This document shows, one piece after another, positions 51,150-57,170 of a DNA stretch of 64,000 bases. Within the stretch, counting starts at the first letter, position 1; the number at the start of each line of letters is the position of its first letter. The DNA comes from Actinomycetota bacterium (GTDB lineage: Bacteria > Actinomycetota > Thermoleophilia > Solirubrobacterales > 70-9), in assembly GCA_018268415.1 (NCBI GenBank), contig JAFDWO010000136.1, forward strand, positions 494-64,493. Reading direction: 5' to 3'. The position numbers and the translations under genes were made by a program. The notes beneath the pieces are model-generated. The model ran no database searches. It was not told the DNA's origin and was given only the letters and a program-made list of their open reading frames with translations.

Positions 51150-51245
51150 GCGCCCGTAGCTCAGTGGTCAACGGGTCCCTCCGGGGGCCCAAAGAGCGTC
51201 GGTCTTTCAAGCCGAAGGTCGCCAGTTCGAATCTGGTCGGGCGCA
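51150..51245 (+). tRNA. tRNA-like gene, anticodon UUC by position, with an 18-nt hairpin insertion in the D-loop (96 nt, no encoded CCA)
   Basis: Manual cloverleaf. Acceptor GCGCCCG/CGGGCGC (7 Watson-Crick pairs), TA, D-stem GCTC/GAGC. Anticodon stem TCGGT/GCCGA, loop CTTTCAA, variable loop AGGTC. T-arm GCCAG-TTCGAAT-CTGGT, discriminator A. The D-loop is 31 nt and contains hairpin GGGTCCC-TCCG-GGGGCCC (51173..51190). Confidence 0.65.
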
Positions 51246-53127: not shown

Positions 53128-53240
53128 AGCGCGCAGGGTACCGCGTCCATAAGGTCTCGGTACGTCTTAGGTTGTTCGATCCGGCACGCCAGCCGTCGCT
53201 AAGGCCCCACCGCTCTGAGGCTGAGGGATCCCGGGGTCCA

Positions 53241-53311
53241 GGCCTCACCTCGGTCACATCGCCGCCGCGATCCCACCCCTCAAGCCAGCGCCCTTCGTCC
53301 TTTCAATCCGA
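53241..53311. repeat. about 70-nt segment paralogous to 57071..57142, ending in a partial tRNA anticodon-arm copy (CCTTCGTCCTTTCAATCCGA)
   Basis: GGCCTCACCTCGGTCACATCGCCGCCGCGATCC aligns with TGGTCTCATTTCGGTCACATCGGCGCCGTGACC. 53292..53311 matches 57123..57142 with 1 mismatch. Confidence 0.6.
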
Positions 53312-53345
53312 TGGAGATTGGCTTTGATGCCTGCGGGCGTCCCGG

Positions 53346-54590
53346 TTATGTCCAGAGAGCGCTGATCGGAACCGCCCAGAGTCGATCGCCGAGCGGGACG
53401 GTCTGGGCGCCGGCATGAATCAGGAACCCGGCGCGGAAGTCCTCGCTGCGAGCATCCCGGATCTTCGCCATCGGCCTCCAGTCTCGTTCCCGGACCGTCG
53501 CCGCCGCCTTGACCTCAAGACAGGCGATCGCTCCTGAGCGATCCTCGAGGACGAGGTCGATCTCGTCGTTGCCGGTTCGGTAGTGGAAGAGACTTGCGTC
53601 GGTGCTCGCCCATTCGAGGTGCTTCATCACCTCCATCGCGACGAAGTTCTCGAGCGCCATTCCGGTGACTCGCTCGTCCTCGCCGAGGCGTTTCGGGTCG
53701 GCTCCGAGCAAATGGGCAAGGAGGCCGCTGTCGACGATGTAGACCTTGCGCGTCGTCGACTCACGAGCTCCGATCGACGGCCTCCAGGCGGGGAGGGTCT
53801 TGACCAGGAAGACGGTCTCCAAGAGGGTCGTGTAGCTGCGGACGGTCTTGTGCTCCAGCTGCAGTCGCTTACCCACCTCCGAGGAGTTCAGGAGGCTCGC
53901 GGCGCGACCCGCCAGCAGCTTCAGCAGCCGCGGCATCTCGCGCAATTTCTGCGCATCGCTGATGTCGCGCAGGTCGCGGTCGAGCGTCGTCTTCAGATAG
54001 TTCTCGAACCAGTTGGCCCGGCGTGAGCCGTTGCGCTTCAGCGCCTCGGGGTATCCACCGGCCGCGATTCGATCGACGAAGGCCCCGCGGCCGACCGGGG
54101 CATCGCGGATCTGAGGCGGAGCCGCGGAGAAGAGGGAGTCGACGATATTGCCGGCCGATCCCTCGATCTCGCTCTGGGACAGCGGCCACAGGGTGATGAT
54201 CTCGATCCGTCCGGTGAGCGCGTCCTGGACTTTGCGGTTGGTGAGGACGTTGGCCGAGCCCGTCAGCAGAAACTGGCCCGGCGTCTGGTCGGCGTCGACG
54301 GCCCCCTTGATCGCGAGCAGCAGATCGGGGCCGGCTCGCTGGACCTCGTCGAGCAGGACCGGGCGCGAGACGCCGGCCACGAATCCCTCGGGGTCGCTGC
54401 TCGCCGCATCTCTCGCTGCTCGGTTGTCAAGGCTGAGCACGTCAGCGAGATGCTCGGTCGCCGCGATCTCTTCCGTCAAGGTGCTCTTGCCCACCTGCCT
54501 GGCGCCCATCACGTAGACGACGCGGGTATCGGCCAGTGCTTCCAGGATCGGCTTGCGACTGTGGCGGGCGAAGTTGGCCGACATCGCCAT
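53346..54590 (-). CDS. AAA-type ATPase with a DUF4143-like C-terminal domain
   Basis: 414 aa. Walker A GARQVGKST, Walker B VLLDEVQ, C-terminal domain typical of the AAA_14/DUF4143 architecture. Confidence 0.75.
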   Translation of the reverse strand: MAMSANFARHSRKPILEALADTRVVYVMGARQVGKSTLTEEIAATEHLADVLSLDNRAARDAASSDPEGFVAGVSRPVLLDEVQRAGPDLLLAIKGAVDADQTPGQFLLTGSANVLTNRKVQDALTGRIEIITLWPLSQSEIEGSAGNIVDSLFSAAPPQIRDAPVGRGAFVDRIAAGGYPEALKRNGSRRANWFENYLKTTLDRDLRDISDAQKLREMPRLLKLLAGRAASLLNSSEVGKRLQLEHKTVRSYTTLLETVFLVKTLPAWRPSIGARESTTRKVYIVDSGLLAHLLGADPKRLGEDERVTGMALENFVAMEVMKHLEWASTDASLFHYRTGNDEIDLVLEDRSGAIACLEVKAAATVRERDWRPMAKIRDARSEDFRAGFLIHAGAQTVPLGDRLWAVPISALWT

Positions 54591-54601
54591 GAGCGTAGTG
54601 C

Positions 54602-54681
54602 AAATTGGGAAAGTCAGCTATGCAATTTGGGAGGTCACTCTAGGGAATATGGGAAGTCGGCAGGAGATAAATGGGAAGGAA
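54602..54681. repeat. four direct iterons (wAAwTGGGArGTC) with exact 22-bp phasing
   Basis: TGGGA starts at 54606, 54628, 54650 and 54672. The units are AAATTGGGAAAGTC, CAATTTGGGAGGTC, GAATATGGGAAGTC and TAAATGGGAAGGAA. They begin 16 nt upstream of the AAA ATPase start codon. Confidence 0.85.
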
Positions 54682-55045: not shown

Positions 55046-56815
55046 TTGAGCGAAACCGAGACCACCTCTAACAAGCCCGCGATCTTCGAGCGCCGGGTCA
55101 AAAAGAGCTCCCGCCAACTTGGCGACGCATACCGGAAGCCGTCCGGTCAAACGGATACCAATAAAAAGATGCAGCCGACCATCGCTGGGCTAATCGACGC
55201 GGTGCGCGAAGGGGACTTGGCTCTTCCCGAGTTTCAACGGGACTATCGGTGGCCAGCTCAGTACATTGAGGAACTTCTTCGCTCTGTGGCACGGGGGTGG
55301 CCGATCGGCACTCTTCTACTGCTCGATCAGTCTGCAAGCGCCAAAGGTCTGAAGCTCGAGGCGCGCTCGATCGAAAAGGCGCCGAACTGCAAGAAGCGTC
55401 CGGAAAACCTGATCCTCGACGGCCAGCAGCGGGTGACCGCGCTCTATCACGCGATGAATGGCCTCGGCGACTCCGTCTACTACCTCAACCTCGCCAATGT
55501 CCTGAATGCCGGGGAATTCCTAGACGACGCACTTGGCTCGGCGACCGGCAAGCAGCTTACGCGGACGCTGGGTTCGGAGGACGAACGTCGCAGAAACAAG
55601 ATCATCCTCCTGAAGGAGCTCTACTCGACGGAGCTCTTTGCGCACTGGCTGGGATTCATTCCGAAAAAAGAACGCAACGCGTATGCGGCGCTGCGCGACG
55701 AGCACTTGTCCCTCTTCCGAGAGCACACGGTTGCGATTGAGCGCCTGCCCAACAGTCTGCCCGTAGAGGCGATCGCAAAGATTTTCGAGAGGACCAACAG
55801 AGGCTTTCTCCGCCTCGACGCTTTTGACCTCATGGTCGCGATCATGTATCCCCACGGCTTCAAACTTAGGGACAAATGGAGCGGGGCCGTAACTGCGAAC
55901 CCGATCCTCAAACGCTTCGAGGTCGCGCCTATCGAGATTCTTCGGCTGATCGCGCTTCGTGAGCATCTCCGACAGAAAGAGCGTCGAGTATCGCCGCAAA
56001 CTGTCAAAGGAGTACGACAGAGTGACGTATTAGAAGTCAAACCCGCCACCGTAAAAAAGGAGTGGACCTCGGCCGTTGCGGCGTATGTGCGAGCCCTCAC
56101 GTTGGCTGAGTCACACTGGGGTGTGATCCGGAAGAGGATCGTCCCCGCCGAGGCTCAGTTGCTGCCGTTAGCTGACGCGCTGTACGGCGGCAACGTCCGC
56201 AACGGATCTTCGAAGCACAAAAAGCTCGGCCGGTGGTTCTGGGCCGCAATCTTCTCCAGGCAATATGCGCGCGCGGCGAATACGCGTGCGGTTTCGGACG
56301 CAGAGGCCCTGAGGGCGTGGCTCAAACCGAGCGGACCCGAACCTCGCTACGTCGAGAATTTCAAGGTGTCAACCGAGGACTTTGTCCTCGTCGAGGAGGG
56401 AAACGAGATCCTGGTCAAGGGGCTCTGCTGCTTGCTGGTCAGCGATGGTGCTCGTAGCTGGACCAAGGCAGCGGGTGGAGGGCTGCCGTCGCTCCTAACC
56501 GAAACTGAAGCCGAGTTGGCGGTCCACCACATCTTCCCGAAGAAATTCATGGCACGCAAATCCAAAGGCACCCTGCGTCTGTTGCCTGATGTCGATGCGC
56601 CTGCAAATCAGGTCCTCATCACCGCAAGTCTGAACGGGAAACTGCTGAACGAGGCTCCGGAGTACTCCGCCAAAAATCCCGAGGTCGACATAGGCGGTCT
56701 CAAAAGCCATCGTGTCGACCCAGCCCGGATGAAGGGAAGTCAGTACAAGGCATTCGTGAACGCCCGGGCCGCAGAACTTGTCCCTCTCGTGGACCGGGCC
56801 GTCAAGGGTTATTAA
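55046..56815 (+). CDS. DUF262-domain protein with a C-terminal His-Me-finger (DUF1524-like) nuclease motif, GmrSD-like
   Basis: 589 aa from TTG 55046; a more conventional start is ATG 55169. LPEFQRDYRW and LILDGQQRVTAL (DGQQR) motifs. C-terminal HHIFPKKF ... NQVLITASLNGKLLN. Confidence 0.8.
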   Translation: MSETETTSNKPAIFERRVKKSSRQLGDAYRKPSGQTDTNKKMQPTIAGLIDAVREGDLALPEFQRDYRWPAQYIEELLRSVARGWPIGTLLLLDQSASAKGLKLEARSIEKAPNCKKRPENLILDGQQRVTALYHAMNGLGDSVYYLNLANVLNAGEFLDDALGSATGKQLTRTLGSEDERRRNKIILLKELYSTELFAHWLGFIPKKERNAYAALRDEHLSLFREHTVAIERLPNSLPVEAIAKIFERTNRGFLRLDAFDLMVAIMYPHGFKLRDKWSGAVTANPILKRFEVAPIEILRLIALREHLRQKERRVSPQTVKGVRQSDVLEVKPATVKKEWTSAVAAYVRALTLAESHWGVIRKRIVPAEAQLLPLADALYGGNVRNGSSKHKKLGRWFWAAIFSRQYARAANTRAVSDAEALRAWLKPSGPEPRYVENFKVSTEDFVLVEEGNEILVKGLCCLLVSDGARSWTKAAGGGLPSLLTETEAELAVHHIFPKKFMARKSKGTLRLLPDVDAPANQVLITASLNGKLLNEAPEYSAKNPEVDIGGLKSHRVDPARMKGSQYKAFVNARAAELVPLVDRAVKGY

Positions 56816-57070: not shown

Positions 57071-57170
57071 TGGTCTCATTTCGGTCACATCGGCGCCGTG
57101 ACCTCGCTTGCCATGCGGGCCACCTTCGTCCTTTCAAGCCGAAAATCGCCAGTTCGAATCTGTAGGGCAT
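57071..57170. repeat. degenerate copy of the tRNA-like gene 3' portion (att-like direct repeat) preceded by the 53241-type segment
   Basis: 57131..57162 CTTTCAAGCCGAAAATCGCCAGTTCGAATCTG versus tRNA 51204..51235 CTTTCAAGCCGAAGGTCGCCAGTTCGAATCTG. The T-stem and acceptor 3' strands are broken (CTGTAGGGCAT). Confidence 0.8.

Follow-up and report, generated by a model that had tools for sequence, protein, structure and literature searches.

Which protein would read four short, evenly spaced repeats that stand directly in front of an ATPase gene, and what would such an arrangement be for? The question is raised by a stretch of 64,000 nucleotides from an Actinomycetota bacterium of the order Solirubrobacterales, the whole of which is called the window throughout this text. 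In it the motif TGGGA starts at 54606, 54628, 54650 and 54672 on the plus strand, with a spacing of exactly 22 bp. The gene that follows lies on the minus strand, and read in its direction the promoter-proximal box 1 (TTCCCAATTTGCAC) occupies 54598..54611, approximately -27 to -14 from the predicted transcription start at 54584. Further out on the same strand are box 2 (CTCCCAAATTGCAT) at 54620..54633 (approximately -49 to -36), box 3 (TTCCCATATTCCCT) at 54642..54655 (approximately -71 to -58) and the distal box 4 (TTCCCATTTATCTC) at 54664..54677 (approximately -93 to -80), so that on the 54584 numbering the boxes cover -14 to -93.

Comparison of the four units leaves 7 of the 22 columns invariant, and Tandem Repeats Finder returned no output on the array because only the cores of ~13 bp are alike. 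The regularity itself was evaluated with a chance model based on the 5-mer frequencies of the genome, in which any 5-mer with at least two A/T may recur four times at one constant period of 10-40 bp; the expectation is ~0.5 per 4.74-Mb genome and ~0.007 per 64-kb window. The four same-orientation TGGGA cores at exact 22-bp phasing, which an earlier note on this DNA had pointed out, are borne out at the same four positions. In the 160 bp before the start of the window gene the autocorrelation is highest at lag 22 (p = 0.005, compared with shuffles), and the GC content of the array stretch is 48%, compared with 70% for the genome. A genome-wide search for the motif, which had been proposed along with the array, found 49 occurrences of TCCCAWWT on both strands, and the window array is the sole site with at least two of them within 120 bp. 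The consensus wAAwTGGGArGTC that had been given for the units stands only in part: the TGGGA core is retained, the rGTC half is variable in orthologous loci, and the conserved core lies on the opposite flank of TGGGA, that is, GCAAwTTGGGAA on the plus strand or TTCCCAwwTTGC(A) on the gene strand. The window has 6 matches to the earlier form WTGGGARGTC, compared with an expectation of 10.7, and hence no enrichment. A search of 50.5-58.5 kb with Rfam at a permissive threshold gave a tRNA only, with no RNA family on the array.

The gene behind the array (53346..54584, minus strand) encodes a protein of 412 aa; the open reading frame as called, 53346-54590 on the same strand, runs from a first ATG that is not conserved. 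The Pfam matches are PF13173 (AAA_14) and PF13635 (DUF4143), and the protein matches the PADLOC family PDC-S01 (AAA_14 plus DUF4143, COG1373) over its full length, with residues 1-412 aligned to positions 8-419 of the 422 positions of profile PDLC04790, a single-gene unit (E = 1.1e-152). The Walker A motif GARQVGKST, the Walker B residues DE79-80 and the PD-(D/E)xK nuclease residues D343, E357 and K359 within DUF4143 are invariant in 86 of 86 homologues. In the AlphaFold2 model made with these 86 homologues (pLDDT 93.6) an AAA+ core and lid, a winged helix and a C-terminal alpha/beta domain can be distinguished, the last of which holds D343, E357 and K359. The modeled winged helix has helices at 234-241 and 245-257, a wing at 261-264 and the sequence SSEVGKRLQLEHKTVRSYTTLLETVFLVK. 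The best matches in the PDB by Foldseek are STAND NLRs, RuvB, ORC/Cdc6, clamp loaders and MuB, all of them modules composed of NTPase, lid and winged helix. The match to 2qby_B, which is Orc1/Cdc6 on origin DNA, has E = 4.5e-5; whole-chain TM-scores are low (0.2-0.4), and a sequence-profile search of the PDB with the ATPase gave no match.

The ATPase and PD-(D/E)xK nuclease domains of PDC-S01 have been described (PMC12988326, PMC3424549), DUF4143 being a PD-(D/E)xK family (PMC3424549). PDC-S01 is reported to be the fourth commonest "defence system" annotation in prokaryotes, with ~39,000 detected copies (PMC12988326). The defence label is a prediction by genomic embedding, and in the only published phage assay of the family a representative failed to protect E. 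coli B from T4, T5 or T7 (10.1101/2024.09.26.614923). The paper that defined the PDC candidates makes no mention of repeats (10.1101/2024.01.29.577857). A published description of repeats upstream of PDC-S01 genes was not found; the literature that we found consists of statements on the protein and on its abundance, and upstream arrays are not mentioned there.

The position of the array relative to the gene start is instructive. The conserved start codon is the second ATG (54582..54584, minus strand), which is kept in the orthologous loci (as GTG in the locus L007); a leaderless mRNA probably begins at the same position. In place of the ATG at 54590, L002-L005 have ATA, and L007 and L008 have ATA or another codon. 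That the mRNA of the window gene is leaderless, with a predicted start at ~54584, appears probable from the sequence because there is no Shine-Dalgarno sequence before the start of the gene and because a TAnnnT lies 7 nt before the conserved ATG. This predicted -10 box, TACGCT (54592..54597, minus strand), follows box 1 at a distance of 1 nt, and the orthologous loci that retain the region have TACGCT, TATCCT, TACCCT, TAGCCT, TAGACT or TACTCT in its place. A scan for E. coli-type promoters gave 0 matches, its consensus being uninformative for an actinobacterium with 70% GC. The array had been said to cover both the ribosome binding site and the promoter of the ATPase gene; the promoter part of this statement probably holds, and the part on the ribosome binding site does not, since the gene appears leaderless.

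We compared the window with 12 loci in Solirubrobacterales MAGs, nine of which carry full-length homologues (86-98% identity), one a more distant homologue (L009, 69%) and two fragments (L011 and L012). The array is kept in all but the short fragment L012, that is, in 11 of the 12 related loci. The invariant columns of the alignment sit in the four cores, and the bases between the cores as well as the flanks vary. Across the 12 aligned loci TTCCCAATTT is invariant in box 1 and TCCCAAATT.CA in box 2, TTCCCA.ATT.CC is kept in box 3, and box 4 is missing from the most divergent locus, L009. On the gene strand the cores read TTCCCAATTTGCA, TCCCAAATTrCAT, TTCCCAyATTCCC and TCCCAkTTATCT. The examination of homologous loci for conserved phased repeats, which the earlier note had suggested, therefore finds them box by box in 11 close relatives, and this conservation supports the view that the array is a phased element on the ATPase promoter resembling a set of protein sites.

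Homology to the window stops 0-25 bp past box 4 on one side and between a few and ~90 bp after the stop codon on the other. Gene and array are conserved as a unit of ~1.35-1.45 kb, which is found in at least four unrelated groups of upstream flanks. None of the proteins encoded next to the window gene, GmrSD included, recurs at any related locus; since the neighbours are not conserved, the ATPase is left as the sole constant candidate for the binder. The 3' end of the window gene has no second, inverted or bracketing copy of a box, and no target-site duplications were seen at the units of gene and array. We considered the boxes as transposon ends and rejected this because no box copy exists on the 3' side. 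A separate observation concerns damaged loci. In L006, L010 and L011 the array is intact and the 5' end of the ATPase gene is lost (codons 1-15, 1-27 and 1-47, respectively), the deletions beginning directly after box 1 or after the -10 box; L095 has lost the gene and retains the distal boxes only. The 5' losses in the relatives suggest recurrent inactivation at the promoter edge.

The surroundings of the gene deserve a description of their own. A tRNA of 96 nt is located at 51150-51245 (plus strand) of the window, with an Rfam score of 64.5 bits and no anticodon assigned by ARAGORN; by eye it forms a regular cloverleaf with the anticodon loop CTTTCAA (UUC, Glu-like) and a D-loop of 31 nt that contains an extra hairpin, GGGTCCCTCCGGGGGCCC. 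A low-GC island (~51-62 kb) begins right after it. Direct repeats of ~90 bp at 53231-53326 and 57072-57162 bracket the segment with the ATPase and GmrSD genes, and similar repeats bracket the ATPase gene in the relatives L001 (2794-2877 and 4955-5036) and L006 (991-1080 and 5023-5105). Each consists of a conserved part of 55 nt (GTCTCATTTCGGTCACATCGCCGCCG...) followed by a copy of the tRNA from the anticodon arm to the 3' end. Their structure resembles att-type scars left behind when elements integrate repeatedly at the tRNA; an integrase for these tRNA-linked repeats was not identified. The divergent neighbour at 55046-56815 (plus strand) encodes a GmrSD-type enzyme (GmrSD_N, E = 8e-22) with a C-terminal HHIFPKK motif resembling a His-Me finger. 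Its true start is likely the ATG at ~55167 (MQPTIAGLID...), which makes the intergenic gap ~580 bp. A functional link between the ATPase and GmrSD was rejected, since no GmrSD is present in any related locus.

The arrays are by no means limited to this clade. We fetched 80 metagenomic loci with homologues of 32-96% identity, and the upstream set tested comprised 85 homologues of 32-98% identity. By eye, most loci of the family have 3-6 direct repeats immediately before the start, whose sequence is specific to the lineage, for example CGGCAGATCGGCCA, CCGAATCTGCGCA, TTGCAGAATCACAAC, CCCGTGAAATCAGCGAC or the palindromic GGTTGAAAATCAACC. Self-similarity of the upstream region is significant in 52 of the 85 homologues, and in 51 of these 52 the best lag is 22 or 23 bp. 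Control windows of four kinds, placed inside the gene, downstream of it, and at 400-560 and 1000-1160 bp upstream, are significant in 0-8% of cases, with scattered lags. About 40% of the homologues have no significant direct-repeat signal, and many of them have a single palindrome instead. When the cores are put in a common register they share C-k-G-C-A-r-A-T-C-n-r-C-n-A. The same features are seen in plasmid-borne homologues of cultured bacteria, such as those of Thermus thermophilus and Pseudomonas mendocina; in phage records the gene family is rare. At the level of sequence, these data show that phased arrays are a property of the whole gene family. The array is apparently an undescribed family-wide cis-signature of an abundant, uncharacterised gene family, of which the window holds one ordinary instance.

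The relation of the arrays to the promoter is less uniform. In most lineages the distance from the start of the last core to the beginning of TAnnnT is 21-25 nt, the start codon lies 6-7 nt past the -10 box, and the first six bases of the last core often take the -35 position, as in TTGCAG-N17-TAGGAT. In the clade of the window the -10 box begins at +14 and box 1 is inside the promoter spacer. The register of the array against the -10 box thus depends on the lineage (+14 in the window clade, ~+23 or +35 elsewhere), and therefore the regulatory sign is uncertain and may differ by lineage.

Further evidence comes from paralogues. The genome of the window contains a second intact copy on another contig (C22:66835-68097, minus strand; in the fetched locus L093, 1336-2598, minus strand), whose product of 420 aa has 28% identity, contains AAA_14 and DUF4143 and matches PDC-S01 at 4e-63. 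This gene lies directly downstream of purA, and three 23-bp repeats of its own, CTTGCAnTTyyCCCGyTGAA, lie between the purA stop and its start. A third copy, on C146, is truncated at the 5' end and is uninformative on arrays for this reason. We also searched 301 genomes of the order by the DNA pattern alone, asking for two TCCCAWWT boxes 22 bp apart; 5 of the 301 genomes match, and the reversed pattern used as a control gives 0. Of the four matches outside the window itself, L096 and L097 carry PDC-S01 homologues (42-43% identity), L095 is the remnant without a gene and L098 is unrelated. From the sequences, each array is shown to be private to its own gene copy. Three further observations were made on repeats in these genomes. 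In L096 (genome G220, C1 at ~284,700) two arrays of different type stand one behind the other in front of the homologue of 43% identity, the distal one with two units TTCCCAATTyGTC of the type of the window and the proximal one with four units AACTCACGATCTG. In L098 (genome G002, C4 at ~330,800) a 22-bp unit, GGACTCCCATATCAGGTATCGC, is repeated in tandem five times or more, and no PDC-S01 gene lies closer than 1.5 kb. A periodicity scan of the window's genome (G000) also revealed short arrays scattered over several contigs, whose periods are 35-38 bp and which share the cores AAGGGATGCGGCC and CCGTCCGAG, for example at C7:17053, C35:48945 and C120:12609 and at C36:5816 and C89:16360.

If the ATPase reads its own boxes, its recognition helix could be expected to follow them. 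In loci fetched for that purpose a correspondence of classes is seen: helices of the type (E/D)HKT go with cores TCCC(A/C/G), DHRT with TGCCAAT, THDT with TCGCCAT, DRGT with ATCGCAT, HPDT with TTGGAA and HRET with TyCGCAT. The homologue in L097 (42% identity), which was found by the DNA pattern alone, has the helix IDHKTV. On a tree built without the helix columns the H-K pair arises at least two and up to four times, each time with TCCC-type boxes, and at least two of these origins are forced by well-supported branches. The sister loci L016 (SDK; CTCCGAATCTGCGCA; CCGAAT) and L102 (DHK; TCCCAATCTGCGCA; CCCAAT) differ in one core base. The formal tests are less generous. A partial Mantel test of array similarity against helix identity, given the identity of the rest of the protein, yields -0.13 (p = 0.96), the top 50 residue-base pairs by mutual information show no enrichment in residues 240-262, and the independent-pairs test on the tree has 2-4 usable contrasts (p = 0.5). 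The covariation of helix and bases is thus suggestive and not significant. Direct readout of the boxes by the winged helix of the ATPase appears likely from these comparisons, but it is unproven because there are exceptions, namely the proteins of L063, L074 and the C22 paralogue, which lack H-K and have TCCC-containing repeats.

Several known systems resemble this arrangement in part. The iterons of theta-replicating plasmids (R6K pi, pPS10 RepA, P1 RepA, RK2 TrfA) are 3-5 head-to-tail repeats of ~22 bp that adjoin the gene of a winged-helix Rep protein; Rep binds them and autoregulates, and the sequence is replicon-specific while the geometry is conserved. Four boxes at 22 bp beside the gene of a winged-helix protein that putatively binds them itself give the window the same outline. 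However, the protein is an AAA+ ATPase-nuclease and not a WH1-WH2 Rep, the loci of the window type are chromosomal, scattered and without origin features that we could see, and the array overlaps the predicted core promoter of the gene. The order of AAA+ and winged-helix domains in the model and the boxes beside the gene are also reminiscent of archaeal Orc1/Cdc6 with its origin recognition boxes and of DnaA with DnaA-box arrays. In contrast to Orc1/Cdc6, the window protein has low TM-scores, no PDB profile match and an extra C-terminal nuclease domain, and in contrast to both, no origin features were seen and a genome contains many PDC-S01 paralogues, each of which has an array of its own. 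Defence genes of the BrxR/CapW type, finally, are controlled by dedicated wHTH repressors with an operator at the promoter of the potentially toxic immune effector. Restraint of a potentially toxic effector through a promoter operator is what we propose here as well, but the DNA-binding domain would be inside the effector, and the operator would be a phased array of several sites instead of a single palindrome.

The answer that we favor, and hold to be probable on the comparative evidence, is that the boxes are private cognate sites for the winged helix of their own ATPase, with cooperative autoregulation as the predicted result. The earlier note had mentioned the DUF4143 protein itself as a candidate partner, and this reading is the one toward which the private arrays and the absence of any other conserved gene point. 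A winged helix in an NTPase-lid-WHD arrangement like that of ORC and STAND proteins, which is confidently modeled, would support such self-binding. According to this proposal, the winged helix of the encoded ATPase-nuclease would bind the four boxes, all of which lie on one face of the DNA given their 22-bp spacing, and protomers or dimers would bind side by side, coupled via the AAA+ domain. One box may hold a dimer, given the partial palindromes that many cores form around AATT or GATC. The occupied array would hinder RNA polymerase, since box 1 fills the promoter spacer and box 2 is just upstream of the -35 position (-49 to -36), and the resulting autorepression would keep a potentially toxic nuclease low and self-limited. 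We infer all three elements, the ATPase as the binder, the cooperativity and the negative effect on transcription. Cooperative autorepression would be the simplest outcome, its sign, ATP dependence and stoichiometry per box being presumed in the same way.

Other explanations have to be weighed against this one. One would argue that the array is nothing but a tandem duplication in decay, or a pattern that arose by chance in an AT-rich promoter, without any sequence-specific function, as merely ~13 of 22 bp are alike and Tandem Repeats Finder finds nothing. However, the cores are invariant across loci despite diverged spacers, the period of 22 or 23 bp recurs in 51 of the 52 significant homologues and in none of the controls, and the expectation per window is minute (~0.007), so that this notion, already contradicted by the pattern of conservation in the sequences, has a nearly negligible probability. 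Iterons that serve the replication or partition of an integrated plasmid or ICE, to which the earlier note had likened the array, would agree with the classical geometry of four direct repeats at 22-bp spacing and with the location in a low-GC, tRNA-linked island. The absence of a Rep or ParB gene nearby, which had been noticed before, is confirmed: a Pfam scan of the larger ORFs of 49.8-60.3 kb gave AAA_14/DUF4143, GmrSD_N and an amidase only, with no Rep family, and no Rep, ParA/B or relaxase gene is near the array. Similar arrays stand before family members at unrelated, scattered chromosomal sites (e.g. after purA), where they always abut a -10 box, and neither an AT-rich unwinding element nor DnaA boxes were noticed when the region was read by eye. 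The iteron explanation is therefore not upheld, and we consider it very improbable.

It is more difficult to dismiss the idea that the boxes are sites of another host-encoded transcription factor or of a nucleoid protein, given that the covariation with the helix of the ATPase is not significant. On the other hand, the arrays are private to each copy, with two paralogues in one genome having different arrays, and no other cluster of the motif exists in the 4.74-Mb genome, both of which make a host factor unlikely. Moreover, the sequence of the array changes with the lineage of the ATPase, across phyla and on plasmids, and no neighbouring regulator gene is conserved; we give this explanation about the weight of an outside chance. 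Somewhat higher, yet still doubtful, stands the possibility that the array is a docking strip for a resting or sensing ATPase-nuclease, or the cis site of a portable one-gene cassette, with autoregulation as a by-product. The unit of gene and array occurs in at least four upstream contexts, L096 carries two array types in tandem, arrays survive beside the 5'-deleted genes and without a gene in L095, the catalytic residues of nuclease and ATPase are invariant, and the one PDC-S01 representative with a published phage assay gave no protection (10.1101/2024.09.26.614923), all of which would fit. However, there is no bracketing box copy at the 3' end of the gene and no target-site duplication was seen; the varied flanks are explained by ordinary island shuffling, because the tRNA-linked island is in part common to the close loci, and the position on the promoter is sufficient to account for the conservation. 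In its boldest form, which we regard as unlikely, PDC-S01 proteins would be a very large family of ATPase-nucleases programmed for sequence, each recognizing its private box of ~14 bp through a few residues of the helix (here H245-K246 for TCCC). The array would serve an ATP-dependent oligomer as a strip for its assembly, in 22-bp register, in a resting or sensing state, and perhaps also as the cis site of a portable unit, and would thus be more than a repressor site.

A conserved and copy-specific phased promoter element is the first concrete handle on the abundant PDC-S01 family. The boxes are a predicted DNA ligand for binding assays, footprinting and cryo-EM, and they offer a route to testing sequence specificity. 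Array-bearing homologues exist in cultivable hosts, for instance on a plasmid of Thermus thermophilus. Clones in defence screens that lack the native upstream 100 bp may be mis-expressed. Private arrays would also provide an explanation of how many paralogues of the family can coexist without cross-talk.
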